DNA of 64,000 bases from Paludibacteraceae bacterium (GTDB lineage: Bacteria; Bacteroidota; Bacteroidia; Bacteroidales; Paludibacteraceae): assembly GCA_017517845.1 (NCBI GenBank), contig JAFWXW010000027.1:17076-81075 (forward strand). Direction: 5' to 3'. A model generated the notes under the pieces. The model made no database searches, had not been told where the DNA came from, and worked only from the letters and a program-made list of their open reading frames with translations. The position numbers and the translations under genes are program-made. The first letter of the stretch is position 1; every line of letters starts with the position of its first letter. This document shows positions 13,752-63,253 of the stretch, piece after piece.

Positions 13752-15236
13752 ATGACAAAGGAAGAAATATACGAATTGCTTCATAGCACGGAGACCTCAC
13801 GTATTGAGCGTACCATAAGTACGGGTGATATGGACAAATTTCAGGAAGCTATTTGTGCTTTCAGCAATGATATGTCCAATTCTCGTCAGAATGGATATCT
13901 TATTATTGGAGCAAAAGATAATGGTGATTTGTCTGGACTAAAGGTGGATGATAACCTTTTCAAGAAGATATCAGGTATCCGTAGTGATGGGAATATTTTG
14001 CCTATACCAATGATGACATGTGAGCGATACGAATTGGAAGGTGGGGATATACTTGTCGTGGAAGTACAACCTTCTTTCTCTACTCCTGTAAGGTATCGGG
14101 GTAGGACATTTATTCGTATCGGACCAAGAAGGGATATCGCAAGCATTGACGAAGAAAGGATTCTTACAGAAAAACGTATGAGCAACATGGCAACTTTTGA
14201 TGCATCGCCTTGTTATGCTGCTACAATAGATGACGTGTACATAGATATCATTAAGAATGAATACATACCTAAAGCAGTTAGTGCAGAAGAGTTGGAGAAC
14301 GATACACGAAGCATCGAACAACAGATGGCGGCATTAGGGTTGTATGATATGGTTCACAACTGTCCTACAAATGCATGTATAGTGCTCTTTGGAAAGAATC
14401 CAAAACAATTCTTATATGGTGCATATTTGCAATATGTTCGTTTTAATGGATTTGATAAGAGTGCAGAAATTGATGATGATAAGCCATTTTATGATTGTCT
14501 AGCGAAGATGATGTCTAAATTGGAATCTTTCATCGATTTTGGCGTGATAAAGACACGTCCAATAGCGGTAAGTACATTGAGAGAAAAGAATCAATCCAAC
14601 TATCCTGCCGATGCTCTTAGAGAATTAATATTGAATGCTTGTATGCATAGAGATTATCAAGCTCACATGCCTACACGTTTTTATCAGTTTGCAGATCGTA
14701 TTGAGATAATGAATCCAGGAGGACTATATGGCAAGGCACGTCCTGAAAATTTCCCTGAGGTAAATGATTATCGTAACCCCATTATTGCTCAGGCATTAAA
14801 AATCATGGGTTATGTGAATATGTTCAATAGAGGTGTAAGTCGTGTAAAGAATATGATGGTTGAGAATGGTAGCAAAGAACCTTTGTTTAATGTTGACAAG
14901 ATTACTGCTTTTGAAGTGATAAGTTATTCTGCGATAAAACACACTGATTTACAGGGATTTTATGAAGATTTTCCTAAGTTATTTCCTAAGTTATTTCCTA
15001 AGTTGCTTGATAAGTTGATTCCAAGTTATTTCCAGGAAAAGGATAAGACCGTTATTGAGGTTATTTTAACTGCTTTAGTTGAACCTAAATCAGCAAAAGA
15101 GATTGCAGAAATGATATCATGTTCAACTCGAACAATAAAAGATAAATATTTAGATAAGATGCTTCAAGCAGAAGTTATCTCTATGACTATACCTGATAAA
15201 CCAACTAGTAGAAATCAAAAATATAAATTAGTTTAA
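13752..15236 (+). CDS. AlbA_2 (Schlafen-like) / HATPase_c_4 / wHTH protein, RecG-like putative DNA-binding regulator family
   Basis: N-terminal ...AICAFSNDMSNSRQNGYLIIGAKDNG... (AlbA_2-like); central LRELILNACMHRDYQAHMPTRFYQFADRIEIMNPGGLY (HATPase_c_4-like); C-terminal HTH-like tail. Confidence 0.75.
   Translation: MTKEEIYELLHSTETSRIERTISTGDMDKFQEAICAFSNDMSNSRQNGYLIIGAKDNGDLSGLKVDDNLFKKISGIRSDGNILPIPMMTCERYELEGGDILVVEVQPSFSTPVRYRGRTFIRIGPRRDIASIDEERILTEKRMSNMATFDASPCYAATIDDVYIDIIKNEYIPKAVSAEELENDTRSIEQQMAALGLYDMVHNCPTNACIVLFGKNPKQFLYGAYLQYVRFNGFDKSAEIDDDKPFYDCLAKMMSKLESFIDFGVIKTRPIAVSTLREKNQSNYPADALRELILNACMHRDYQAHMPTRFYQFADRIEIMNPGGLYGKARPENFPEVNDYRNPIIAQALKIMGYVNMFNRGVSRVKNMMVENGSKEPLFNVDKITAFEVISYSAIKHTDLQGFYEDFPKLFPKLFPKLLDKLIPSYFQEKDKTVIEVILTALVEPKSAKEIAEMISCSTRTIKDKYLDKMLQAEVISMTIPDKPTSRNQKYKLV
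14971..15030 (+). repeat. 12-bp in-frame tandem repeat (TTCCTAAGTTAT x3 plus two degenerate units)
   Basis: Encodes FPKL-FPKL-FPKL-LDKL-IPSY in the linker before the C-terminal HTH region. Confidence 0.8.
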
Positions 15237-16492: not shown

Positions 16493-17108
16493 TATTGTTA
16501 GCCTGTTCTATGTCACCAAATTTAAGACCAGGGAATTTTTCTAGTTTTTCTGTAGTTTCTACTAGGTTGATAAGTTCTTGTTTATCTAAGTCGTTTAGAT
16601 AAGATACGTATGGAGCTTTTGCAGCCATAACTTTCACTTTGATACCAGCAGAACCAGTTGTGATTTCAGCTTTTTCTAGAGTAAATTCTTGTCTTGGAGA
16701 AGAGAAAGGAATATAACGTAAAGAATCCACTGGGTAGTTAGCACCGAATAAGTTTTCTAGCATACTAACGTATGTGGTATCACGTTTGATAAGGCCTTGT
16801 TTAACAGCTTCACGTTCGGTTAAACCTTCTTCTAATTGTTTGTCAGTAAGTTCGCCTTCTTTCAACACGATTTTTGCTTTTTCGTACTTAACGAAATTGA
16901 TAAGTGTGTCAAAACTTGTTGTAAAATCACCTTTGATGTTACGATATTCGGTTTCTGCACGACGAATATCAATTAAGCGTTCTACGATGACTTTTTCACG
17001 GGCATCTCTTACTTCATTAAATTCAATAGGAGTCATTACGCTTTGGTAGCATAGATATGCCAATGTGCACGCTGCTACAATTAATAAGAATTTTAATACG
17101 TTATTCAT
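16473..17108 (-). CDS. membrane-anchored hypothetical protein
   Basis: N-terminal TM anchor FLLIVAACTLAYLCY; CAAAAATA -7 box (minus strand) at 17144-17151. Confidence 0.55.
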   Translation of the reverse strand: MNNVLKFLLIVAACTLAYLCYQSVMTPIEFNEVRDAREKVIVERLIDIRRAETEYRNIKGDFTTSFDTLINFVKYEKAKIVLKEGELTDKQLEEGLTEREAVKQGLIKRDTTYVSMLENLFGANYPVDSLRYIPFSSPRQEFTLEKAEITTGSAGIKVKVMAAKAPYVSYLNDLDKQELINLVETTEKLEKFPGLKFGDIEQANNNAGNWE

Positions 17109-26737: not shown

Positions 26738-26774
26738 CTCCTAACTTCTCACTCCTAACTCCTAACTCCTAACT
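26738..26774 (+). repeat. heptamer array (CTCCTAA)n, locus A
   Basis: CTCCTAA CTTCTCA CTCCTAA CTCCTAA CTCCTAA CT; last unit contains the TAG stop (26769-26771, minus strand) of the thiamine diphosphokinase gene. Confidence 0.9.
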
Positions 26775-27386
26775 GTAATCAAGGATTACCAAAAACTCCC
26801 CATCTGCACTAATGCAACATTCATCTGCTGTGCACTCATTTAGAGTCCCTTGCCATAGAGCAGTGAAATCATAGATAGGATATTTCAGCCCCTTGCTACT
26901 AAGATTTTTTGCACCAAAATTTATAATTGAAATCTGTTGTCCCGCTTTGGACTGTATTTTTACAAAATCCTTACATGGAAAAATACTACAATAATCTGTT
27001 AGCATAATCACATTGAGTCCCATTCTTCTGTATTCCATAAGCAGACTGATGTTTCCTAATGTGTGACATTCCCTTTTTCCTGTAGCTCCTAGAATAGCAA
27101 TATTTCTAAAACCTAAATTTTGGGCATAGTTTATTGCTTTTGTAAGGTCATTGGTCTCTTGGTCTTCGACCAATATAAATTTTAGTTTGCTTTTTAGTTC
27201 TTTGTCTATAGAATCTCCATCGCCAATAGTTGCCATTGGCATTTTGCCTGTTTTTATATAACTATTGGCAGCTCCATCGCAACAAATTACTTTATCGCAA
27301 TGATTGAGTATGCTTAGGGGCAACTCGTGAGTAGGGTAGTCGCCTTCGGCTAATATTACAACTTCTATGTCGTTTAGGTTAAGCAT
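26769..27386 (-). CDS. thiamine diphosphokinase
   Basis: ATIGDGDSI motif and overall TPK-like layout; 205 aa. Confidence 0.75.
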   Translation of the reverse strand: MLNLNDIEVVILAEGDYPTHELPLSILNHCDKVICCDGAANSYIKTGKMPMATIGDGDSIDKELKSKLKFILVEDQETNDLTKAINYAQNLGFRNIAILGATGKRECHTLGNISLLMEYRRMGLNVIMLTDYCSIFPCKDFVKIQSKAGQQISIINFGAKNLSSKGLKYPIYDFTALWQGTLNECTADECCISADGEFLVILDYS

Positions 27387-37004: not shown

Positions 37005-37125
37005 CAACTCTTCCCCGCAAAATTAATTATAACGAGGAATTTTTAGATATCCGAGGTAGGAAAAACCGGAGTGTACACCCGTACTCGAGGATTTTTACTA
37101 CAAGGATAGCGAGAAAATTACCGTT
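37005..37125 (+). repeat. degenerate member of the mosaic repeat family, locus F
   Basis: CGCAAAATT (37016-37024) and TGTACACCCGTAC (37072-37084) resemble modules Md-end and Ma; internal direct repeat CGAGGAATTTTTA / CGAGGATTTTTA. Confidence 0.35.
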
Positions 37126-37129
37126 AGAA

Positions 37130-37546
37130 TTAGTTTTGTTCAGGTTTTGGTTTTGGTATTACATTACCCTTTATATTAAGTACAATAACTTGTGGTTTTT
37201 CTTCACCAGCTTGTTGGTAACGTACTGTGATACTCTTATTAAAGTTGCCTGGACGACCTGCTGGGTTATAAGTAACTTTGATTAAACCTTTTTTCTTTGG
37301 AGCGATAGGTTCTTTTGGCCAGTTTGGAGTGGTACAACCGCAAGAAGCTTGTACGTTGGTTAAAGTAACAGCTTTTTTGCTGATGTTTTTAAATTCAAAA
37401 TCAAAAGATACTCTGCCATCTACTTCTTGGATAGAACCAAAGTCGTGAACTCTTTCTTCAAATTCAATAGCTTGTGTTGCGTCTTGTGCCCATAATGCTC
37501 CGCATACAGAGAATAATAGAGCTAATAAAAATAATCTTGTTTTCAT
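37130..37546 (-). CDS. DUF1573 domain-containing protein
   Basis: HDFGSI...FEFKN.....L.NVQASCGCTTP motif characteristic of DUF1573. Confidence 0.75.
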   Translation of the reverse strand: MKTRLFLLALLFSVCGALWAQDATQAIEFEERVHDFGSIQEVDGRVSFDFEFKNISKKAVTLTNVQASCGCTTPNWPKEPIAPKKKGLIKVTYNPAGRPGNFNKSITVRYQQAGEEKPQVIVLNIKGNVIPKPKPEQN

Positions 37547-42565: not shown

Positions 42566-43218
42566 TGTTACATTCCACCAAAGGTATAGTTCTTCGTTTA
42601 GTCCAATACAAGGATAATAGTTATATAGCAGAGATTTTTACACAGAAATTTGGTAAGGTAAGTTTTTCTGTGCATCGTCCGCAGAGTAAAAAGGCATCTA
42701 TTAGAAACTATCATCTAATGCCGTTTTCTCTTATTGATATGCAGATAGAATATAAGGAGAATAGGGATATTCAGAAAATCTGTGAAGCAAATCTCTCTCC
42801 AGAATATTATGCCGTTGTAGAAAGTCCTGTGAAACAGTTAATCTGTCAATTTATGGCTGAGGTGGTGAGTAAAACCATAGAAAGAAATAATGCAGATGAA
42901 ATGCTTTTTGGTTATTTCACTTCTCTAATTAATACAATATCTTCCGAAAATAATTTAGGAAAATTTCCTTTGGATTTTCTTTTGGGATACGCCCAATATT
43001 TGGGAATCTATCCAGATGATAAAGAGAGTAATGAGTTTATTTCACTACTTTCTGTTGCAGATAGGGAGGTTTTATTATCTGTTATAAATGAGGACAAGGA
43101 ATTAAATAGGGTAGATAGACGTAGGGCAATACATCTTCTTTTGAAGTATTATCAATATTTTCTCCCTTCTATGGGTACAATTAAATCACTTGATGTGATT
43201 ACTGATGTACTTGGCTAA
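42565..43218 (+). CDS. recO: DNA repair protein RecO
   Basis: N-terminal OB-fold-like TKGIVLRLVQYKDNSYIAEIFTQKFGKVSF; 217 aa. Confidence 0.75.
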   Translation: MLHSTKGIVLRLVQYKDNSYIAEIFTQKFGKVSFSVHRPQSKKASIRNYHLMPFSLIDMQIEYKENRDIQKICEANLSPEYYAVVESPVKQLICQFMAEVVSKTIERNNADEMLFGYFTSLINTISSENNLGKFPLDFLLGYAQYLGIYPDDKESNEFISLLSVADREVLLSVINEDKELNRVDRRRAIHLLLKYYQYFLPSMGTIKSLDVITDVLG

Positions 43219-44256
43219 ATATTCTTGCTCTGTTTGACCAGGGGTTGGGATAAGTGTAGCATTTTGTAGTTTTCCTAAAGCATATAAGTCCATAATACTA
43301 CTATATCCGCTGCGGCAAATAATTTTATCTGCTTTGAGTATATATTCTTGTAGTTCTTCTGCACTCATGTAGTTGTACACTATTACTTTACCTACTTTTG
43401 TAATCTTTTGCTGAGCTTCAATTTTTCCTTGCACAAGTATGATATTTTCATGTGGATTATCTTGAAGTGAAGTCAAAAGTTCTTCTTCAAACATTGTTCG
43501 TTGAGGCTCCGCTCCAGATAATATAGTTAGGAGTGAGGAGTTAGGAGTGAGGAGTGAGGAATTTTGCGAGTAAGCGAGAGCAATGTTAAGCTTGCTTATG
43601 CATAGCCGAGCGGGAGCAAAATCACGGGCGCAGTCCGTAATTATGGTTTCATGCCCGTAGGGTGTGCATCTTTTAGAAAATCTAGAAATCGCCCCAATAT
43701 ATTTCACACATCGTGGCATTATAGCCGGATGTGAAAGTTCACCCGCAAGCGATTTCTCTTTGTTTTCATAGTCTGGAACCCAGCATTCTGTAAACCTATT
43801 TATAATGCACCTGTGAACAAATGCAACAAAAGGCTCTAGCCACGTCCAACCTTTGGGTAATTTTATCCAAAGTTGGTGGGTAATATATGCAGAAGGGGTG
43901 GTATTATGAAAAAGTCCAAATCTATTGTCAGAGACAATGAAGTCTATATTTTCTTCCTTTACTATTCTTTTTAAGACTTGATGCTCCTTAATGCTATAAA
44001 AGATAAGTCTTGGGAATGCTTTCACCACAGCCCATACCTGAGAATTTCCAGAAGAATATTTCATCTTAAAAGATGGAATCTCTATAGAATGCAGAGTGGG
44101 GAATTGCTTTTTTAGGAGTTCCAAAGACAGACCAGAACCAGCGATAATAACATTATCGCCTAGTTCTATGTATCTGTTTATAATGGGAATAATTCTAGAC
44201 GCATGACCCAATCCCCAGTCTAATGGTGAAATTAATATGCGTCTATTATTTTTCAT
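43186..44256 (-). CDS. GT-B glycosyltransferase (GT28/MGT-like) carrying a 49-codon repeat-element insertion
   Basis: N-terminal ISPLDWGLGHASR, C-terminal CRSGYSSIMDL...IPTPGQTEQE; residues RCTPYG...SSLLT are encoded by repeat locus B. Confidence 0.7.
   Translation of the reverse strand: MKNNRRILISPLDWGLGHASRIIPIINRYIELGDNVIIAGSGLSLELLKKQFPTLHSIEIPSFKMKYSSGNSQVWAVVKAFPRLIFYSIKEHQVLKRIVKEENIDFIVSDNRFGLFHNTTPSAYITHQLWIKLPKGWTWLEPFVAFVHRCIINRFTECWVPDYENKEKSLAGELSHPAIMPRCVKYIGAISRFSKRCTPYGHETIITDCARDFAPARLCISKLNIALAYSQNSSLLTPNSSLLTILSGAEPQRTMFEEELLTSLQDNPHENIILVQGKIEAQQKITKVGKVIVYNYMSAEELQEYILKADKIICRSGYSSIMDLYALGKLQNATLIPTPGQTEQEYLAKYISNHIK
43525..43671 (-). repeat. mosaic repeat element, locus B, inside the glycosyltransferase ORF
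   Basis: Minus strand reads Ma TGCACACCCTACGGGCATG, Mc GATTTTGCTCCCG, Md CTCGGC-hairpin-TGCTCTCGCTTACTCGCAAAATT, then 5 heptamers (TTCCTCA CTCCTCA CTCCTAA CTCCTCA CTCCTAA). Confidence 0.85.
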
Positions 44257-49322: not shown

Positions 49323-49342
49323 AATAATACTAGATAAAAACG

Positions 49343-49378
49343 ATAATGGCCTCAAGAAATTGAGGTCATTATTTTTTT
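49343..49378 (+). terminator. pgm terminator hairpin, direct-repeat copy 1
   Basis: AATAATGGCCTCAA-GAAA-TTGAGGTCATTATT + T-run; near-identical copy at 50467-50503. Confidence 0.65.
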
Positions 49379-49397
49379 GTATGCGGTTGGAGATTTA

Positions 49398-50273
49398 TTA
49401 TTTCAACTTATTTAAAATATCTTCTGCTGTTATTGAGTTTAACAATGTTACTGCACAGAGTTTCTGACCAATGTCTTTTATTGAGGCTCCTATATGATAA
49501 ACTTTATTATCTACAATCATAAATCTGTCGTGACAAGTTTTGTTCACATACACAGTTACTGGTGGATATTGAATATTATGTTTATCTAAATCATGAGTAA
49601 ATTGTTCACTCTTTTTATAAGTGTAAATTTCTGCTATCAAACCTGTTTTACGTTTTGATAGTAATGTTAAAACAGAATCATCAACATAATTATCTATAAT
49701 GATAATGCGAACTTTTGCTTGTTTTACCAAATCAGACATCAAAATATGAGCATCAAAGACTTGATTATTGTGAAATACTCCTTCTACTGGTGGTAATGAA
49801 GTACGAACAAAGAAGTCAACCTGCTCTGTAAGATGCTCAATCTTTTGTTCGTGCTCGTATAGTTTATTATCAATCTTATTTTCAAGAGTTTCAATGCGTT
49901 GATTAACAGCATATCCACGAAGTAAATAATCTTTCAAGACTTTATTCGCCCATTGGCGAAATTGAACTCCTTGTTTACTTTTAACCCGATAACCAACAGA
50001 TGTTATAACTTCTATATTGTAATATTCTACATTGTATGTTTTACCATCCGTCGCAGTTGTCGCAAAATTTGCGACAACTGAACAATTAGATAATTCTTCA
50101 CGTAATGCATTATTAATGTGTTTGCCAATAGTTTTGATGTCACGTCCAAAAAGTTGTGCTATTTGTTGTCTGTTCAACCAAACAGTTTCATTTTCCAAGC
50201 GTACTTCTAAACTAATACTCTCATTAGGAGAATAAAGAATGATTTGATTTTGATCTAAATTTTGATTTTTCAT
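49398..50273 (-). CDS. RhuM family (virulence RhuM-like) protein
   Basis: WLNRQQIAQLFGRDIKTIGKHINN...YYNIEVITSVGYRVKSKQGVQFRQWANKVLKDYLLRGYAVNQR matches the RhuM family core as I recall it; C-terminal HDRF...HIGASIKDIGQK module. Confidence 0.75.
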   Translation of the reverse strand: MKNQNLDQNQIILYSPNESISLEVRLENETVWLNRQQIAQLFGRDIKTIGKHINNALREELSNCSVVANFATTATDGKTYNVEYYNIEVITSVGYRVKSKQGVQFRQWANKVLKDYLLRGYAVNQRIETLENKIDNKLYEHEQKIEHLTEQVDFFVRTSLPPVEGVFHNNQVFDAHILMSDLVKQAKVRIIIIDNYVDDSVLTLLSKRKTGLIAEIYTYKKSEQFTHDLDKHNIQYPPVTVYVNKTCHDRFMIVDNKVYHIGASIKDIGQKLCAVTLLNSITAEDILNKLK

Positions 50274-50395
50274 AATTACTAAGAATTAAGATTTATAGTT
50301 CAGTTAATTAAAACAAAAGTTGCTGTTTGTGGCATTAATTTTACAATTACAAACACAACTTCAAGACCTGTTCCTTGTTGAGTTCAAGGGTGTTA

Positions 50396-50403
50396 CAAAG
50401 GTA
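50396..50403 (-). promoter_or_regulatory. -7 box (CAAAGGTA on plus strand) for the RhuM gene
   Basis: Inside the cassette, about 120 nt upstream of ATG 50273. Confidence 0.3.
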
Positions 50404-50466
50404 GCAAAAACTAGCGAAATAACAAAACATAAATATAGGCATAAATATCAATATAGGGTAATAAAA

Positions 50467-50503
50467 ATAATGACCTCAAGAGATTGAGGTCATTATTTTT
50501 TTT
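50467..50503. terminator. terminator hairpin, direct-repeat copy 2
   Basis: AATAATGACCTCAA-GAGA-TTGAGGTCATTATT + T8; differs from copy 1 at two positions within the hairpin. Confidence 0.6.
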
Positions 50504-57200: not shown

Positions 57201-57658
57201 TATGTGATATATGGGTTTTCCATATCTATCCAGTAACCCATTTTACTGGTCAAACTTTCCCATTCTTTGGTATATTTCATCACGTCTTTGCGACAGTGTG
57301 AATTATAATCCTCTACAGAGATAGTATTACCGATGTCTTCTTTTGTAATGCCAAGTGCTTTTTCTACACCAAGTTCTACAGGAAGACCATGAGTGTCCCA
57401 ACCTGCTTTACGAGTAACCTTAAATCCTTGCATAGTTTTGTAACGAAGGAAAAGGTCTTTGATAGAACGAGCCATAACGTGGTGAATACCAGGCATACCG
57501 TTGGCAGAAGGTGGTCCTTCAAAGAAAACGAATGGAGTGCAACCCTCTCTAGTCTCTATACTTTTCTTGAAAACATCATTCTTTTCCCATTCTGCTTGTA
57601 CTTCTTTGCCCACAGCAGATAGGTTAAATTGTTGATACTCTGTAAATTTCTTGCTCAT
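54284..57658 (-). CDS. ileS: isoleucine--tRNA ligase
   Basis: HIGH-type PSANGMPGIHH, KMSKS KMSKRLGN; 1124 aa. Confidence 0.95.
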   Translation of the reverse strand: MSKKFTEYQQFNLSAVGKEVQAEWEKNDVFKKSIETREGCTPFVFFEGPPSANGMPGIHHVMARSIKDLFLRYKTMQGFKVTRKAGWDTHGLPVELGVEKALGITKEDIGNTISVEDYNSHCRKDVMKYTKEWESLTSKMGYWIDMENPYITYTNDYIESLWWLLKQLYNKGLLYKGYTIQPYSPAAGSGLSSHELNQPGCYRDVKDTTVTAQFKVKGEENLYILAWTTTPWTLSSNTALCVGPNIDYVRYATQNPYTKEDIEVILAKDLFKAYFKDAECPAETFKGSEIVGLEYEPLLPFFTPIEEGAFRVIAGDYVTTEDGTGIVHIAPTFGADDARVAKAAGIPPMQVIDKNGNLRPLVDLQGKFYTIEDLDAEYVSKYVNVDAYKEFAGRFVKNAYDANLTDQDETLDISICMYLKQKGQAFKIEKHTHNYPHCWRTDKPVLYYPLDSWFIRSTACKDEMVELNKTINWKPASTGAGRFGKWLENLQDWNLSRSRYWGTPLPIWRTEEGKEEICIGSIEELMNEIEKSIAAGFMSENPFKNFKVGDYSKENYSTENIDLHRPYVDNIVLVSASGKPMYRESDLIDVWFDSGAMPYAQLHYPFENKELIDENKFFPADFINEGVDQTRGWFFTLHAISTMIKGSVAFKNVISNGLVLDKNGNKMSKRLGNSVDPFNAIEKYGADSVRWYMMTNSAPWDNLKFDPAGVEEVLRKFFGTLYNTYSFFALYANVDNFTYAEAEVPMNERPEIDQWILSKLNTLIKDVKDGFDAYEPTRAGRAISDFVTESLSNWYVRLNRKRYWAGKMDTDKLSAYQTLYTCLETVARLMAPIAPFYADRLFCDLNNATGRFSEISVHLCKFPEVNEELINSELEDKMDIAQSITSLALALRKKANIKVRQPLSRIMIPSADATTDSHIKSVEDLLKNELNIKDIEIVTDSQGVFVKRIKPDFKKLGPKCGKNMKTVANTLQNLSQEEIYRFEADGFYKVNIDAAEIEISTEDVAIFSEDIPGWLVANEGKLTIALDITLTAELEAEGTARELINRIQNLRKSNGLEITDRINISVYAQGENFSDINNAINNHKEYILAQILCDNLELSDNYDAKNGEEIEFGAENIFILLEKA

Positions 57659-57694
57659 ATTGTTGTGTTTTTTATTTTCTAAATTCTAATTATT

Positions 57695-57966
57695 CGGGCT
57701 ATGCCCTCATGATTGCTGGCTGTGTATTAGCTTCGCTGAAGTTGCTTACGTTCGGCATAATCAAAGTAAACTTTGCTTCTGCTCTCACTAACTCGCAACA
57801 TTCGGCATAACTTAAGCAAGCTTAGTTCTGCTCTCACTTGCACAAATTACTCGCTTCGCTCGTGATTTTGCTCCCGTTCGGCAATGATTAAGTAAACTTA
57901 TCATTGCTCTCACTTACTCGCAAAATTCCTAACTCCTAACTCCTAACTCCTAACTATTAACTATTA
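57695..57966 (+). repeat. mosaic repeat element, locus C (three tandem hairpin units plus heptamer tail)
   Basis: Units 57751-57800, 57801-57846, 57847-57925 each carry TTCGGCA-hairpin-TGCTCTCACT...; Mb 57847-57861, Mc 57864-57876; heptamers 57926-57966. Confidence 0.9.
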
Positions 57967-58383
57967 TCGTAGTCTATCAAGCGAGCGAACTAACGCTTCA
58001 TCCTTCCCTATGGCACGAATAGCTAGATATGTTAATATGATATTAATGAACGGAATTGCAAAAACGCCTAAAATATGTGTTGGAAGTACTTCTTCTACTG
58101 TGTAATTAGATTTAAAATAGAAGAAATATGCCACCATACTAATGATTTGGAATATCATTAATATTATATTAAAACTATTTACTCGCATCTGTAAAATGCG
58201 TTTTTTAAATAGGAAAATACTAATAAAAGATACGATAGGAATTAATACTGTAAGACCTGCGTAAATGTAACAGTTATCAAGACCTAAAGTAAGTCCTTTT
58301 ACACTAGCAAAGGGACTACAACATTGAAAAATGCCTAAGGCAGTAACAATGAATAAATAAATACTTTGGATACGTTGAATCAT
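57964..58383 (-). CDS. multi-pass membrane protein (resembles DUF4293)
   Basis: Four hydrophobic helices; start at ATG 58383 (MIQRIQSIYLF); stop codon lies in a degenerate heptamer unit. Confidence 0.55.
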   Translation of the reverse strand: MIQRIQSIYLFIVTALGIFQCCSPFASVKGLTLGLDNCYIYAGLTVLIPIVSFISIFLFKKRILQMRVNSFNIILMIFQIISMVAYFFYFKSNYTVEEVLPTHILGVFAIPFINIILTYLAIRAIGKDEALVRSLDRLR

Positions 58384-58400
58384 AGCGTCGCAAAGATACA

Positions 58401-58440
58401 AAAAAAACCGCAAAGCTGAGCTTTACGGTTTATTTTTTTT
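58401..58440 (-). terminator. hairpin terminator after the small acidic protein gene
   Basis: CCGCAAAGC-TGA-GCTTTACGG flanked by A7 and T-run. Confidence 0.55.
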
Positions 58441-58450
58441 GTTCAAGAAA

Positions 58451-58642
58451 TTATTCAGCAACAACTGAGTCTGCAACTTCAGCAACTTCTTCTACAACTT
58501 CTACGATAGAGTCAGCAACTTCAGCAACTTCTTCAACTGCAACTTCTTCTACAACTGCTTCTTCAGCATTTTCTTGGCATGCATTGCAAGATGCGAAAGC
58601 GATAGCAACTGCAGCAGCTACGAATAAAACGATTTTTTTCAT
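58451..58642 (-). CDS. small acidic repeat lipoprotein
   Basis: Signal/lipobox AFASC; repeated EEVAEVADS(I/V)V; -7 box CAAAGATA (plus strand) at 58690-58697. Confidence 0.45.
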   Translation of the reverse strand: MKKIVLFVAAAVAIAFASCNACQENAEEAVVEEVAVEEVAEVADSIVEVVEEVAEVADSVVAE

Positions 58643-58744
58643 TTTTCTTAGATTTAAATATTAAACAACTGTTGTTTTTTTTGACGCTACAAAGATAATT
58701 ATAACTAAAAATGCTTTAAAACATATTAAGTTAAAAAACGTTAA

Positions 58745-60412
58745 TTAAACTTGTATGTTTGTATATAGGTATCTTTTAATACTTTTCTTAGGAGTTTTTT
58801 CAAATTCTGTAGGATAAAGTATTAATTTGGTGATGCCTTCATAAGAAGCTACTATGCTGTTAAGATTCTTTCTGTTTTCTTCCATTACCAATTCTAGGTC
58901 TTTTGTACTAATACAAGCAGAATCTACAGCCTCAAAGTCTGGATATACCAAACCATATAGTTTGCCTTCTTTTTCTATCACGATGCTTTCCAAAACAAAA
59001 GGCATGTTGTTTAATTTGGCTTCTATTTCTTCTGGATAGATATTTTGGCCATTAGCACCCAAAAGCATTGTTTTGCAACGACCTTTTATAAAGATAAATC
59101 CTTCTTCGTCTATCACACCCACGTCACCAGTTTTTAACCAACCATCTTCTGTAAAGGTATCTTTACTAGCTTCCACATTTTTGTAATAGCCACTCATAAC
59201 ATTTTCGCCACGCACTTGTATTTCACCTGCCACATTATAAGGGTCTGTAGAATCTATTCTTACCTCCATAGTGTCAAGGATTTTGCCAGAAGCACCAGGC
59301 TTGTTTTCTTGCCAGTTTGCATAACTGATAAGAGGAGCACATTCTGTCATACCATAACCAACAGTGAAACGGAAGTTTATTCTTCTTAAGAAGTCTTCTA
59401 CTTCTTTGTTTAATGGGGCTCCGCCAATAATAATTTCTTTGAATTCATTGCCAAATGCTGTATGAAGTTTTTTGCTTATTTGACCATAAATCTTATTATC
59501 AACCAATGGAATATTAAGTGCCATCTTCATACTTCTTTTGTTCAATTGTGGTTGAAGTTGTTTTCTATAGATTTTTTCTAGAATTAGTGGCACAGTGAAA
59601 ATCATGGTAGGGCGAATTTCTTCAAATGCTTTCAAAAGGACCTTTGGACTAGGTATCTTATTCAAAAGGTAAACGTGTGTACCACAACAAGTAGCAGTTA
59701 AAAAGTCGAATGCCATACCGTATGCATGTGCAAGTGGTAAGAAGTTCAAAACTCTGTCACCACGTTGTAAAAGTTTGGTACGAATACCAAATGTAATATT
59801 GCCAGCTAGGGCGTTTGCAGAAATCATAACACCTTTGCTGAAACCAGTTGTACCAGAAGTGTAACTAATCATTACTAATTCTGTATTGTCACGTTCTGCG
59901 TATGAAATATCATCTGGAGTATATCCCTTAGGATATTTTTCGTTGAATTTTTCATCTAGGCTCAACATGATTTTCTGGATTCCTTGACCATCTTTTTGGT
60001 GCACACAACGGAAGTCATCAAGAGAGAAAATTCCGTTTAGGTTTTCCATTTTTTCTTCTTCAAGTTTATCCCAAATATTGTCGCTACAGAATAAAAGAAC
60101 AGAATCTGAGTGATTTACTATGTGGTGAATATCGTTGGCATTAAAGTCTTGTAGAATAGGAACAATAACTGCCCCGTATGTAACAGCAGCAACGTATGTA
60201 AGTGTCCAGTTTGGAGTGTTTTTGCCGATAAGAGAGATCTTATCACCAGGTTGAATTTGCAACTCGTCAAATAAAAGGTGAAGTTTAGCTATTTGTGTAG
60301 CAGCTTCTCCATAAGTTAGAGTTTGTTTTTTGTAATAATTTGTATAAGCAGGTAGTTCCCAGTTTGTTTTGAAACTATGCTCAAAAAGCTTGATAAGATT
60401 TTGTTCAATCAT
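58745..60412 (-). CDS. AMP-dependent synthetase / long-chain acyl-CoA ligase
   Basis: YTSGTTGFSKGV, GYGMTE, TGDVGVID; start at ATG 60412 (MIEQNL), consistent with the -7 box at 60439-60446. Confidence 0.85.
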   Translation of the reverse strand: MIEQNLIKLFEHSFKTNWELPAYTNYYKKQTLTYGEAATQIAKLHLLFDELQIQPGDKISLIGKNTPNWTLTYVAAVTYGAVIVPILQDFNANDIHHIVNHSDSVLLFCSDNIWDKLEEEKMENLNGIFSLDDFRCVHQKDGQGIQKIMLSLDEKFNEKYPKGYTPDDISYAERDNTELVMISYTSGTTGFSKGVMISANALAGNITFGIRTKLLQRGDRVLNFLPLAHAYGMAFDFLTATCCGTHVYLLNKIPSPKVLLKAFEEIRPTMIFTVPLILEKIYRKQLQPQLNKRSMKMALNIPLVDNKIYGQISKKLHTAFGNEFKEIIIGGAPLNKEVEDFLRRINFRFTVGYGMTECAPLISYANWQENKPGASGKILDTMEVRIDSTDPYNVAGEIQVRGENVMSGYYKNVEASKDTFTEDGWLKTGDVGVIDEEGFIFIKGRCKTMLLGANGQNIYPEEIEAKLNNMPFVLESIVIEKEGKLYGLVYPDFEAVDSACISTKDLELVMEENRKNLNSIVASYEGITKLILYPTEFEKTPKKSIKRYLYTNIQV

Positions 60413-60438
60413 TTTTGCACAAATTTTAAAATTCTGTG

Positions 60439-60446
60439 CAAAAATA
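60439..60446 (-). promoter_or_regulatory. -7 box (CAAAAATA on plus strand)
   Basis: 26 nt upstream of ATG 60412. Confidence 0.4.
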
Positions 60447-60523
60447 TAAAAAAAATGAGAGATATGCAAAAATATCTCTCAAAAAGTATGTTTTACAGCA
60501 TATTTGTTACAAATTTAATACAA

Positions 60524-60702
60524 TTACTCGCTACGCTCACTCCTCATTGCCTACGGCGATTTTGCTCCCGCTCGGCATAATCAAAATAAATTTTGCTTCT
60601 GCTCTCACTTACTCGCAAAATTATTCCCTTCGGTCATCAACTCGTCCTAACTCCTAACTCCTAATTCCTAACTCCTAATTCCTAACTCCTAACTCCTAAC
60701 TA
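60524..60702 (+). repeat. mosaic repeat element, locus D
   Basis: Mb 60524-60538, Mc 60558-60570, Md 60571-60622, eight heptamers 60644-60699 plus CTA, which is the nadE TAG stop. Confidence 0.9.
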
Positions 60703-61488
60703 TATCCCGTATTCCTCTAAGAAATAGTCAGGTAAATTTGGTAGGAATGCAGGCAATTGCACCGCATGAAGTTTAAACTGCATAAACTTATACCTATTTA
60801 TTATCTTCTCATAGTGTTCACCCACTTCATTTAATCTAATTACTTGATTAATTTCATGGTAGGTCCAGCCTAAATTGTCTTCGTCAGTCTTTCCGCACAT
60901 GCCATCAGAAGGTGCTTTGTGAGTAAGGTCAAATGGGAGTCCTAAATAATCACCCATTGCCACAACTTCTTCTGTGGTAAGTTTTGCCACAGGAGCAAAG
61001 TCACCAGCACTATCTCCATAATGAGTAGAATATCCTTGAACATCTTCTGAACGATTACAAGTATTTACCACGCGTGCGTTACCTATTATCGCACCTATTC
61101 CATATAGTGTAGTCATACGTAGTCGGGCAGGGGTGTTTGTAAGGTATTGAGGACTCAAGGATTCTAGATCCAACTTTGATTTTATTTCTTCTGTTAGTCC
61201 ATTGTAGGCATTGTTTATATTAATAGTAATATGAGGGATTTGTAAGAAATCTACTATTTTTTGTGAATCGGAGATATCTGGTTGTATCCCATTGGGCATC
61301 ATAACACCCAAAATACGTTCTTTGCCTATAGCTTTGGCACACAATGCTGCCACCACAGTAGAATCTTTTCCACCGCTAATGCCAATGACCACTTTGGTGG
61401 AATCATTTCCATTTTTACTCATCCATTCTTGTATCCATTTGATACAAGAGTCAGTGATTTGTGCTACATTAAATACGTATGGTTTCAT
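60700..61488 (-). CDS. nadE: NAD(+) synthase (ammonia-dependent type)
   Basis: PP-loop GISGGKDSTVV; start at ATG 61488 gives an ATGA overlap with the galE stop. Confidence 0.85.
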   Translation of the reverse strand: MKPYVFNVAQITDSCIKWIQEWMSKNGNDSTKVVIGISGGKDSTVVAALCAKAIGKERILGVMMPNGIQPDISDSQKIVDFLQIPHITININNAYNGLTEEIKSKLDLESLSPQYLTNTPARLRMTTLYGIGAIIGNARVVNTCNRSEDVQGYSTHYGDSAGDFAPVAKLTTEEVVAMGDYLGLPFDLTHKAPSDGMCGKTDEDNLGWTYHEINQVIRLNEVGEHYEKIINRYKFMQFKLHAVQLPAFLPNLPDYFLEEYGI

Positions 61489-62504
61489 TTTTTGCCCAAT
61501 TTTTCTTGCCAACGCCATGCAGAAAGTAGAGTTTCTTCTACAGACTTTTCTGCTTTCCAACCTAGTTCTGTGTTAGCCCAAGTAGGGTCTGCCCAAACTT
61601 GTTCTATATCTCCTGCACGTCTGCCTACTATTTTATAGTTGAGTTTTACTCCAGTTACTTTTTGGAAAACATCTATAATTTCTAATACAGAAAGACCTTT
61701 ACCAGTACCTATATTAAATATTTCAACAGGTTTTTTATTTAATTTTTCAGAAAGTCTTTTTACTGCTACAACGTGAGCCTTAGCCAAGTCTGTAACATTA
61801 ATATAGTCACGAATACATGAACCATCTGGAGTGTTGTAATCATCGCCGAATACACTTAAACATTCTCTAATACCAGCAGCAGTTTGGGTGACGTATGGAA
61901 TAAGGTTTTGAGGCACACCTATTGGAAGTTCACCTATTTCTGCACTTTCGTGAGCACCTATTGGGTTGAAGTAACGTAATAGGATGGCAGAAATATTTCC
62001 GTCTGCACTCACAGTGTCTGTGATAATTTCTTCGCAAATCTGTTTGGTATTGCCGTATGGCGAAAGAGCTGTTTGGATAGGTGCGTTTTCGGTAACAGGA
62101 AGTATTTCTGGTTGTCCGTAAACAGTACAAGAAGATGAAAAAACTATGTTTTTAATTTCATGTTTCTTCATAAGTTCTAGCAAGTTTATCAGTGAAACTA
62201 GATTGTTTCTGTAGTACAAAAGTGGATTCTCTACAGATTCGCCTACTGCCTTGCTTGCCGCAAAGTGTATAATGGAATCAATGCCTTTGTTTTCTTCCAT
62301 TAGTTTATCCAATGCGTCTTTGTCTCTACAATCTATTTCGTAAAATTTAGGTCTTACGCCACAGATTTTTTCGATACCATCTAGCACTCCAATGTTTGAG
62401 TTTGAAAGGTTGTCTACAATTATTGGCTCGCAACCTGCGTTTATAAGTTCTACCACAGTGTGTGAACCAATAAAACCAGTACCTCCAGTTACTAAAATTT
62501 TCAT
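61485..62504 (-). CDS. galE: UDP-glucose 4-epimerase
   Basis: VTGGTGFIGSH, catalytic YGNTK; 339 aa. Confidence 0.92.
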   Translation of the reverse strand: MKILVTGGTGFIGSHTVVELINAGCEPIIVDNLSNSNIGVLDGIEKICGVRPKFYEIDCRDKDALDKLMEENKGIDSIIHFAASKAVGESVENPLLYYRNNLVSLINLLELMKKHEIKNIVFSSSCTVYGQPEILPVTENAPIQTALSPYGNTKQICEEIITDTVSADGNISAILLRYFNPIGAHESAEIGELPIGVPQNLIPYVTQTAAGIRECLSVFGDDYNTPDGSCIRDYINVTDLAKAHVVAVKRLSEKLNKKPVEIFNIGTGKGLSVLEIIDVFQKVTGVKLNYKIVGRRAGDIEQVWADPTWANTELGWKAEKSVEETLLSAWRWQEKLGKK

Positions 62505-62536
62505 ATTATCGTTGTTTTGTATTGTTTATTTGTTTA

Positions 62537-62716
62537 GATGCACACCCTATGGGCGTGCCCTTTGGGGTCTATTATATACAGGCGTTGCGCTACGCTTAAC
62601 ACCTGCCTACTTAGAGAAAAACCCCTACGGGGTTGAATTAATTCCTAATTACTCGCTTCGCTCGGCATAGTTCAAACAAGTTTGACTCTGCTCTCGTTTG
62701 CACATTAATTCCTAAC
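62537..62716 (+). repeat. mosaic repeat element, locus E (fills the def-galE spacer)
   Basis: Ma 62539-62557, Mb 62649-62663, Md 62661-62710, single TTCCTAAC unit 62709-62716 that encodes the last codons of def. Confidence 0.85.
62615..62634 (-). terminator. weak terminator-like hairpin inside repeat locus E
   Basis: Minus strand AACCCC-GTA-GGGGTT followed by TTTTCTC; short stem. Confidence 0.3.
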
Positions 62717-63253
62717 TTTATAATGCGTTCTCACCTTGCCTTTGCTTAGCGAAGAAAGTTTTGAAGATATCATTTGTCTGCGGATAGGAGAGATTCTATC
62801 AACAAACACGTGACCCATTAGGTGATCGTATTCGTGTTGAATGGCACGAGCCTCAAAACCAGAATAAGTTTCAGTTTTTTCTACCCAGTTTTCATCAAAA
62901 TAATGAATGGTAACAGAAAGTGAGCGTGGTACTCTCTCAGATATTCCAGGAATGCTTAAACAACCCTCTTCCTTGCTTTCTTTTTCTTCACTAAAGAAAG
63001 TAATTTCTGGATTAATAAATACCTTTTTAAAGTTTGCCCATTCTGGATTTTCGTCCTTTATAATACTTAAATCTACAATAAACAATTTTATAGGTAATCC
63101 TATCTGTGGGGCAGCAAGACCCACACCCTCTGCTCTCTCCAATGTTTTAAACATATCTTCTATAAGAGTAGGGAGCTCAGGATAATCTTTGGTAATAGGT
63201 TCTGCTTGTTTTTTTAAAACTGAATTTCCGTAAATAACTATAGGGTATATCAT
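62705..63253 (-). CDS. def: peptide deformylase
   Basis: GLAAPQIG, EGCLSIPG, QHEYDHL metal-binding motifs. Confidence 0.9.
   Translation of the reverse strand: MIYPIVIYGNSVLKKQAEPITKDYPELPTLIEDMFKTLERAEGVGLAAPQIGLPIKLFIVDLSIIKDENPEWANFKKVFINPEITFFSEEKESKEEGCLSIPGISERVPRSLSVTIHYFDENWVEKTETYSGFEARAIQHEYDHLMGHVFVDRISPIRRQMISSKLSSLSKGKVRTHYKVRN

Follow-up and report, generated by a model that had tools for sequence, protein, structure and literature searches.

Repetitive extragenic palindromes (REPs), bacterial interspersed mosaic elements (BIMEs) and the REP-associated tyrosine transposases (RAYTs) linked to them have been worked out almost entirely in Proteobacteria, with reference descriptions from Escherichia coli and Pseudomonas (Nunvar 2010, PMC2817692; Bertels & Rainey 2011, PMC3116915; Di Nocera 2013, PMC3733652); the Bacteroidetes repeats in the last of these are of the CGTC type only. 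The 64,000-nucleotide stretch analyzed here (positions 17,076–81,075 of contig JAFWXW010000027.1, hereafter the window) comes from the metagenome-assembled genome (MAG) of a ruminant-gut Paludibacteraceae bacterium, within a 201,887-bp scaffold, and carries a family of short mosaic palindromic repeats at five loci, A–E. From sequence comparison these loci are read as non-autonomous copies of REP/BIME-type mosaic palindromic repeats mobilized in trans by a RAYT-like transposase, with a probability of roughly two in three. The family is specific to Paludibacteraceae and related Bacteroidales and represents a gut-Bacteroidales version of REP/BIME, not a new kind of element. An earlier reading of the window without database searches (the original prediction) had not recognized the family, and no published description of it was found in the literature searched.

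The likeness to the REP/BIME-RAYT systems of E. coli and Pseudomonas comprises a GTAG-tagged imperfect palindrome, mosaic clusters of variable composition, a mostly extragenic position near gene 3′ ends, repeats that themselves lack a transposase, and a Y1/HUH gene that has the repeats on both sides in inverted orientation and here seems to have one context per lineage. The differences lie in the gut Bacteroidales host, a 63-nt two-helix core without the tag, a nested 23-nt mini-module, arrays of 7- and 8-mers, several copies translated in frame, and the shortness of the Y1 protein (∼145 aa). IS200/IS605 elements and their miniature derivatives, the palindrome-associated transposable elements (PATEs), likewise have subterminal hairpins, no target duplication, an orientation bias, a Y1 HUH enzyme and insertion 3′ of a short motif resembling the element's own 3′ end. 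The present repeats differ from them in lacking tnpA and tnpB (the units are 63–90 nt without an open reading frame (ORF)), in a Y1 gene that seems to have one context per lineage rather than multiple copies, and in a target motif (..ATT/..TT) that is only loosely defined. In the proposed mechanism, the modules, the core included, would form hairpins once the DNA is single-stranded, and a RAYT-like Y1 (HUH) transposase encoded by a single-copy gene would cut and join these hairpins in trans; copies would persist at harmless positions.

Modules of the repeat family and the loci of the window

The original prediction had listed loci A–E, and less surely F, as sharing modules named Ma to Md and a heptamer tail. 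Loci A–E are real. Counted against 100 shuffles of the window, their modules lie far above chance, with two exact matches of Ma (0.02 expected), three matches of Mb (0.06), five of TCGGCA-N20–32-TGCTCTC (0.01) and 23 heptamer dimers (2.9), besides three exact matches of Mc. A covariance model of Mc plus Md recovers six window units at E-values of 1e-7 to 1e-22, and Tandem Repeats Finder delimits the CTCCTAA arrays of loci A–D. A segment of 120 nt, 85% identical and inverted, is common to loci B and C. In all, the window contains six core units and one REP, with a locus roughly every 13 kb; its G+C content is 30–39%, and that of the modules is higher. The features are as follows, with their basis in brackets.

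26738–26774, plus strand: locus A, a (CTCCTAA)∼5 array without a hairpin module (Tandem Repeats Finder, sequence)
26769–27386, minus strand: thiamin pyrophosphokinase gene, whose TAG stop is overlapped by the locus A array (ORF list, Pfam)
43525–43560, minus strand: locus B heptamer array, CTCCTCA/CTCCTAA on the minus strand, translated SSLLTPNSSLLT (Tandem Repeats Finder, sequence)
43560–43622, minus strand: locus B core, with outer stem ATTTTGC/GCAAAAT and inner variable hairpin (cmsearch, 79.6 bits, E 6e-20)
43623–43640, minus strand: locus B HP1, the 5′ hairpin TTACGGACTGCGCCCGTG (sequence)
43650–43668, minus strand: locus B Ma hairpin TGCACACCCTACGGGCATG, translated CTPYG (module match)
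57690–57712, plus strand: locus C first HP1 hairpin TTATTCGGGCTATGCCCTCATG (sequence; the module recurs in other copies)
57739–57802, plus strand: locus C core 1 (73.9 bits)
57803–57843, plus strand: locus C core 2, partial, inner hairpin only (37 bits, model positions 15–55)
57847–57864, plus strand: locus C second HP1, the degenerate Mb form TTACTCGCTTCGCTCGTG, whose reverse complement contains GCGAAGC (sequence)
57865–57927, plus strand: locus C core 3 (88.5 bits, E 1.6e-22)
57927–57966, plus strand: locus C heptamer tail, four CTCCTAA units followed by degenerate CTATTAA units (Tandem Repeats Finder, sequence)
57964–58413, minus strand: DUF4293 gene, whose TAA stop is entered by the locus C tail (ORF list, Pfam)
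60524–60558, plus strand: locus D Mb, one CTCCTCA unit and HP1 ATTGCCTACGGCG (sequence)
60559–60622, plus strand: locus D core (83 bits)
60623–60645, plus strand: locus D 23-nt mini-module ATTCCCTTCGGTCATCAACTCGT (sequence)
60645–60701, plus strand: locus D heptamer array, 8.1 units of CTCCTAA/TTCCTAA (Tandem Repeats Finder, sequence)
60700–61560, minus strand: NAD synthase gene, whose TAG stop is abutted by the locus D array (ORF list, Pfam)
62539–62557, plus strand: locus E Ma hairpin (module match)
62578–62610, plus strand: locus E REP proper, GTAG-GCAGGTGTTAAGCGTAGCGCAACGCCTGT on the minus strand, imperfectly palindromic and enclosing a GNA-loop hairpin
62620–62634, minus strand: locus E small hairpin (hp) AACCCCGTAGGGGTT, then TTTTCTCT on the minus strand (terminator-like; homologous hairpins stand in Y1-gene flanks)
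62642–62716, plus strand: locus E 3′ part, with one TTCCTAA, Mb, a variant core and one more heptamer (sequence)
62648–62710, plus strand: locus E variant core, ending TCTCGTTTGCACATTAATT (41.4 bits)
62705–63253, minus strand: peptide deformylase ORF, ending inside the locus E 3′ part (ORF list, Pfam)

The family is composed of a 63-nt core, a small GC-rich 5′ hairpin (HP1), a GTAG palindrome, further small hairpins, a 23-nt mini-module and (CTCCTAA)n arrays. The core contains two covarying helices and reads ATTTTGC-TCNCGYTCG-GCA, a variable hairpin, and TGC-TCTCRCTTACTC-GCAAAAT-T. Mc and Md, though correctly picked out, are therefore not separate modules but parts of this one unit, in which the 5′ ATTTTGC pairs with the 3′ GCAAAAT; Mb is equally real but is a degenerate form of the HP1 that precedes each unit. 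At locus E, the original prediction was right about the repeat and left unnamed both the GTAG palindrome (62578–62610) and the small hairpin (62620–62634). Its description of the family as a BIME/REP-like mosaic and not a single MITE (miniature transposable element with inverted repeats) is borne out by module composition and order, which vary among loci and among orthologous sites, and by the presence of the GTAG-tagged palindrome.

Relatives of the window were represented by 8-kb stretches of MAGs (L-numbers denote loci and P-numbers Y1 proteins). The search for further copies in related genomes that the original prediction had suggested found the exact 23-nt 3′ end of the core at 72 loci in a species-representative genome collection. 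These are mostly from Paludibacteraceae, Candidatus Enterocola and other Bacteroidales MAGs of ruminant and horse guts, and one is from a cultured isolate, Porphyromonadaceae bacterium H1 (contig L052). The core end was not matched in viral contigs, giving no sign of phage carriage. Many matches fall on short contigs, at an end or close to it; the repeats break MAG assemblies. A covariance model, also proposed beforehand, was built from the core alignment after 77 copies had been written out with their flanks and aligned, and it identifies 95 units in 73 sources. Rfam gave no match for the whole window at gathering thresholds and none at E ≤ 10 in 57600–63000, and the window contains no tRNA or tmRNA.

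Folding of single sequences yields only modest z-scores, and covariation is the informative test. Changes on both sides occur in 18 of the 19 core pairs, with 176 compensatory cells, and core cells are paired in 88.6% of cases, compared with 75.6% in column shuffles and 35–52% in slid-partner controls. Locus C core 1 provides an example: its outer stem is the variant AAGTTGC/GCAACATT, with a compensatory T-A to G-C change (pair 3/99). One-sided G-U intermediates are almost absent from the core alignment. Judged from this alignment, the hairpins are under selection, and the near-absence of G-U intermediates would fit pairing at the DNA level.

HP1 stands before each core, in variants that include GGGC-TTC-GCCC, AGGC-TTC-GCCT, GGAC-TGC-GTCC, GCC-TAC-GGC and the degenerate GC-TWC-GC (Mb). 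Variation of its stem is compensatory, and its commonest loops, TTC, TAC and TGC, read GAA, GTA and GCA on the other strand. The small hairpins Ma, HP1 and hp have mostly G-N-A loops on the strand that carries GTAG; G-N-A loops of the d(GCGAAGC) type form exceptionally stable DNA mini-hairpins, a likeness that serves as a lead only. The 23-nt mini-module recurs elsewhere, nested in the core internal loop (L022, L025, L057 and L076) or alone (L053).

The GTAG-palindrome architecture is present in 17 further copies among the loci, and a GTAG tag with an imperfect palindrome is the classical REP signature. In locus E, the minus strand (62610–62578) reads GTAG-GCAGGTGTT..AACGCCTGT, and the stem contains a wobble pair, T.G when read on the GTAG strand and C.A on its complement. 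This wobble is kept in two diverged REP subfamilies (CAGGTGT/ACGCCTG and CAGGTAT/ATGCCTG) with a compensatory change adjacent to it, which points to the GTAG strand as the folded REP strand. The mismatches of the core are mixed, with many T.C cells (G.A on the other strand) beside an invariant G.T. The core G.T is on the forward strand and the REP wobble on the other, and the mismatch pattern singles out neither strand of the core as the folded one. A further GTAG-tagged palindrome, GTAGGGACGCACGGNNCGTGCGTCC, adjoins family members in L030, L034 and L049; in L049 it takes the place of the variable hairpin of the core, directly before TGCTCTCACTTACTCGCAAAATT.

Insertion sites and Y1 genes in sister genomes

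Locus F, which the original prediction had given as a probable sixth member (37005–37125), does not belong to the family. It has no core match at E ≤ 10 and is a separate conserved motif of ∼110 nt (37031–37146, minus strand). The motif (..AAAGGGTGCTTT..CGTTGCCCTCGTCTTCAAAATCCTC..TAAACTCCGGTTTCTCAGACTTCGGGACGCCTAAAAATCCCTCC..) lies between two DUF1573 genes and recurs in eight other loci; it has no Rfam match, its RNAalifold consensus hairpin is weak, and it could represent a small RNA or leader that has escaped annotation.

The nine copies of this motif (alignment A4) provide a comparison of filled with empty sites. Six are uninterrupted, L041 and L013 hold a 72–75-nt insert of HP1 plus core, and L053 holds only the 23-nt mini-module. 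The empty junction reads ..CTCATT|TACG.., and the filled junction of L041 reads ..CTCATT|GCCTAACGGCG...GCAGAATT|TACTG... The HP1-core unit lands after ..ATT/..TT and ends ..AATT. No target duplication is seen between the filled and empty A4 sites, within a 2–3-nt ambiguity (ATT), and the copies read have no terminal inverted repeats, as the original prediction had stated. This pattern is the signature of Y1/HUH (IS200/IS605-type) single-strand transposition and not of a DDE-type MITE.

IS608-like and E. coli RAYT-like (YafM) sequences were used as Y1 queries against the six-frame ORFs of all loci and against window ORFs of at least 60 aa. One gene was found, in L002 and by the IS608-like query only, encoding a 144-aa Y1_Tnp protein (Pfam E 1.3e-23; ∼145 aa in sister genomes). 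Directly upstream of it are two GTAG palindromes, a Ma hairpin and small hairpins as in locus E of the window. Seven homologues (57–94% identical) were located in public contigs, none with tnpB beside it. P0122, P0123, P0134 and P0135 were each found at several places in one genomic context apiece, and P0129, P0125 and P0141 at one place each. H55-x-H57 (HUH) and Y113 are invariant in nine Y1 proteins.

A Ma-REP-hp composite is positioned upstream of the Y1 gene in L002, L078, L080/L083, L085–L087 and L090, and it is also present downstream, inverted, in L080/L083, L085–L087 and L090. The downstream flank in L090 reads REP-hp-(CTCCTAA)4, and the upstream flank of the Y1 gene in L089 contains TTAGGAG units, Ma, a variant of the core (39 bits) and a REP. 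The upstream composite is thus present in L002 and in those lineages whose REPs are close relatives (P0122, P0123, P0134 and P0135). A Y1 gene flanked on both sides by inverted modules is the defining REP-RAYT arrangement. In sequence terms, the testable defining features of REP-RAYT systems thus appear together in this family: the tagged palindrome, the flanked Y1 gene (in sister genomes only), and the HUH motif with its tyrosine. Each Y1 lineage seems to have its own REP class, and a distinct REP class per RAYT lineage is what is expected. In L084 (1100–2300), the Y1 gene P0129 lies amid many copies of a different repeat pair (GTAACCCYGTGTTAAGGTCG..CGACCGCAACGCRGGGAT and TTACCCCGTCAGGGGTAA).

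Several observations weigh against mobilization by such an enzyme. The core itself has no GTAG tag, and its invariant G.T (pair 19/79) is on the forward strand, opposite to the strand of the REP wobble. What links the core to the transposase is its joint occurrence with the other modules in composites and a single weak match in a Y1 flank, the L089 variant above. NCBIfam files the L002-type protein as a plain IS200/IS605 transposase. The original prediction saw no transposase or integrase in the window, and IS200- and RAYT-type Y1 queries found no Y1 gene in its six-frame ORFs of at least 60 aa, a search that covered neither integrases nor other transposase families; possibly the window strain has no such enzyme at all. 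The phosphoglucomutase (PGM) of L090 is 97% identical to that of the window, which in essence makes the two a single species. In L090, the interval from the PGM terminator to the 56-aa/gyrB genes is occupied by REPs, the Y1 gene and an unrelated 300-aa gene (L090 834–3000); at the Y1-gene position the window has a RhuM-family gene (49398–50273). Finally, among 174 arrays of 7- or 8-mers in 554 kb (L002–L073 and the window), 123 are separated from any core by more than 150 nt, and the abundance and origin of the arrays are not explained by the model.

In the window, the RhuM gene lies in a variable island (49323–50502) bracketed by two terminator copies that are 83% identical (49326–49378 and 50450–50502). 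Public metagenomes hold natural experiments, with filled and empty sites, a glycosyltransferase linker in which the element is found both ways round and with its modules combined in many ways (described below), and a near-identical strain with a transposase gene where the window strain has none. Gain, loss, in-frame tolerance and enzyme dependence are therefore testable by comparative metagenomics.

Gene context, orientation and in-frame copies

The neighbors of the repeats in the window are ileS, DUF4293, an AMP-binding enzyme, NAD synthase, a GalE-like epimerase, peptide deformylase, thiamin pyrophosphokinase and META. Copies lie within 7- or 8-base arrays directly after stop codons, in 3′ untranslated regions (UTRs) and between cistrons, and a minority is in frame within genes. 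For loci A, C, D and E, whose neighboring genes run on the minus strand, the heptamer end of the element touches or overlaps the upstream gene's stop (ORF ends 26769, 57964, 60700 and 62705); the mRNA would hence read stop-(UUAGGAG)n-hairpins. Locus C is located between cistrons, and locus D between the NAD synthase stop and its native intrinsic terminator (60481–60456, minus strand). The small hairpin of locus E, with its TTTTCTCT, scores as terminator-like on the sense strand. Among independent co-directional sites, with orthologous sites merged, 28 copies are antisense and 9 sense (p = 0.0026), and each of the 14 arrays of CTCCTAA type that lie within 20 nt of a stop codon reads TTAGGAG in the sense direction.

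Locus B, correctly described as a reverse copy, is in frame inside the ORF 43186–44256 (minus strand) and so is not intergenic. This gene encodes a Glyco_tran_28_C glycosyltransferase of 356 aa that reads straight through the repeat, which makes up residues ∼194–243 between ..YIGxxSRF and ..ILSGAEPQR. The array units are CTCCTCA wherever CTCCTAA would place a TAA in frame. Orthologues are 70–89% identical and 318–393 aa long, with length variation confined to the repeat site; the repeats thereby create length-variable protein annotations. The DNA of four orthologues contains modules in both orientations, all in frame. The order is forward, Ma-[REP-Ma]-HP1-core-heptamers, in L076 and the window, and reverse, heptamers-core-HP1-heptamers-second unit, in L074; L075 and L077 are deletion derivatives. 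The AlphaFold model of the glycosyltransferase is unusable for placing the insert (mean pLDDT 42), and a sequence search of the PDB returned nothing. Further in-frame copies (NFASKREQR.VYLTMPS.SKI) are found in a ComEC-like gene, a U32-like gene and another ORF, the names being read from the translations.

Rickettsia palindromic elements (RPEs) are likewise palindromic repeats that lie in frame in genes and are translated at tolerated positions. The present family differs in that most copies are intergenic and that, at the intragenic site, both orientations occur and modules turn over rapidly from strain to strain. RPEs are single units of 100–150 bp without tandem arrays and are not known to be linked to a RAYT. 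The resemblance is behavioral and not one of homology.

The transcription-related orientation bias could also mean that the units are mainly functional RNA elements (3′-UTR stabilizers, RNase processing sites, attenuators or small RNAs) that are transcribed along with the upstream gene and spread by duplication and recombination, without a dedicated transposase. Strong covariation of the core agrees with this explanation, as do the positions of loci C and D and the terminator-like run of T following the hp hairpin on the sense strand; E. coli REPs, moreover, stabilize upstream mRNA. Selection on RNA pairing, however, sits poorly with the scarcity of G-U intermediates among so many compensatory cells, and Rfam returned nothing even at E ≤ 10. 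The glycosyltransferase site carries the element translated and in both orientations, the A4 inserts are clean and interrupt an unrelated conserved motif, and modules flank the Y1 transposase gene. An origin as RNA elements is therefore held to be rather unlikely. A secondary RNA role is compatible with mobilization in trans and does not replace it for origin and spread. In the preferred orientation, the mRNA would present (UUAGGAG)n followed by hairpins, and by analogy with E. coli REPs such copies probably also act as mRNA 3′-end hairpins or terminators.

Two other roles were considered and rejected. For a promoter, near-matches to the Bacteroidetes −7 box (TAnnTTTG) at both ends point into the element, and sigma-70 sites are fewer than in shuffles. 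For a Shine-Dalgarno ribosome trap formed by (UUAGGAG)n, the other array units (TAGTCGAT, CGACTTT and CTTCACT) do not resemble a Shine-Dalgarno sequence.

Heptamer and octamer arrays

Cores usually bear the same short tandem repeat on both sides, and the unit varies among copies even within one genome (CTCCTAA, TAGTCGAT/TCACCGAT, CGACTTT, CTTCACT and CGCCTAAA). In all ten copies that could be evaluated, the array keeps its phase from one side of the element to the other. Such a comparison would not reveal a duplication of exactly one unit, and the claim of no duplication rests on the filled and empty motif sites. Fifty-one of the 174 arrays lie within 150 nt of a core, a zone that makes up 5.6% of the sequence; this enrichment is inflated, the loci having been chosen for the core. 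Recurring units in L002–L073 and the window include CTCCTAA, CGATTAGT, GTTTAGTC and CGACTTT, among others, and most of the arrays stand away from cores. The isolate contig L052 has arrays of up to 15 units (ACCTAAC/ACCCAAC).

The abundance of arrays away from cores lends itself to an explanation without transposition, in which slippage, gene conversion and illegitimate recombination among arrays and hairpins would produce a satellite-like family and the association with Y1 would be coincidental. Units such as CTCGCTTA-CTCGCAAA look array-derived, and modules are shuffled, tandemly duplicated and deleted between short repeats; L075 resembles L074 minus an internal segment. Such processes do not readily account for a 72–75-nt unit with precise boundaries in unrelated contexts, including a conserved motif and several genes, or for a conserved 3′ end (..GCAAAATT) and landing after ..TT. 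Coincidence is also an unlikely producer of Y1 genes flanked on both sides by inverted modules in several lineages. This explanation is considered distinctly improbable.

A conventional MITE derived from a DDE-transposase insertion sequence is very improbable. The units are short, non-coding, present in many copies and partly self-complementary (ATTTTGC/GCAAAAT), as those of a MITE would be, but the only terminal complementarity is the 7-bp outer stem, which covaries like a helix, and filled and empty sites differ without target duplication. Clustering of all ORFs of the 72 loci gave no recurrent protein family adjoining the copies, and the sole transposase-like gene recovered by the Y1 queries is itself a Y1 gene. 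A MITE from the same order, BrickBuilt/MITEPgRS of Porphyromonas gingivalis, contains a minisatellite and resembles the present family as a non-autonomous Bacteroidales repeat with internal tandem repeats (Klein 2015, PMC4596501). The present family differs in its filled sites without target duplication and in 7–8-mer arrays that lie outside the hairpin units. BrickBuilt reportedly has terminal inverted repeats and longer repeat units. Integron attC or another site-specific recombination site is scarcely credible despite the imperfect hairpins with bulged bases and a variable center: copies also lie inside genes, no R″/R′ core sites (RYYYAAC/GTTRRRY) were noticed on reading, with no pattern scan or integrase search made, and attC identity looks unlikely from the context of housekeeping genes rather than cassettes (ileS, NAD synthase, def, the GalE-like epimerase and thiamin pyrophosphokinase).

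Within the preferred reading of trans-mobilized REP-type repeats, it is also conceivable, though doubtful, that the arrays are not passive landing pads and that the Y1/HUH enzyme itself makes them by repeated cleaving and rejoining beside a bound hairpin. The stretch between the cleavage site and the hairpin foot would then be duplicated in each cycle. If so, the arrays would belong with the nested mini-modules and the cores to a single repeat system that builds itself, and a mechanism would be at hand for the heptamer arrays of cyanobacteria (short tandemly repeated repetitive, STRR, sequences) and Beggiatoaceae. More generally, the link to 7/8-mer arrays may help to explain heptamer repeats of other phyla.

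In the literature searched, the closest description of such arrays concerns direct repeats of the heptamer TAACTGA in Beggiatoaceae, in cyanobacteria and in five Bacteroidetes, Paludibacter propionicigenes among them (MacGregor 2015, PMC4679880). STRR and TAACTGA repeats, like the present arrays, are intergenic 7-nt arrays at many loci per genome, with stops in three frames and overlap with ORF ends, and the unit is similar (TAACTCC here, TAACTGA there). The arrays here follow stop codons, with TTAGGAG in the sense direction, whereas those in Beggiatoaceae lie just upstream of start codons. Further differences are the coexistence of several units (CTCCTAA, TAGTCGAT, CGACTTT, CTTCACT and GTTTAGTC) and the hairpin modules that the arrays host. 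Small dispersed repeats (SDRs) of cyanobacteria, reportedly described by Elhai in 2008, are said to be ∼21–27 nt long, nested in larger repeats or hairpin loops, and to adjoin heptamer arrays. Their likeness to the 23-nt mini-module is a lead only, as sequences and host phylum differ.

Two other tandem repeats were seen in the window. At 14970–15033, a 12-nt repeat, TTTCCTAAGTTA, occurs five times inside the ORF 13752–15236 (plus strand) and is translated (FPKL)n; it contains TTCCTAA yet is coding, has no hairpin modules nearby and is probably unrelated to the family. Overlapping 9/12-nt repeats (TCAGCAACT/CAACTGCTTCTA) occupy 58455–58568, between the DUF4293 and AMP-binding genes, and on the minus strand would encode a putative acidic repeat rich in E, V and A.

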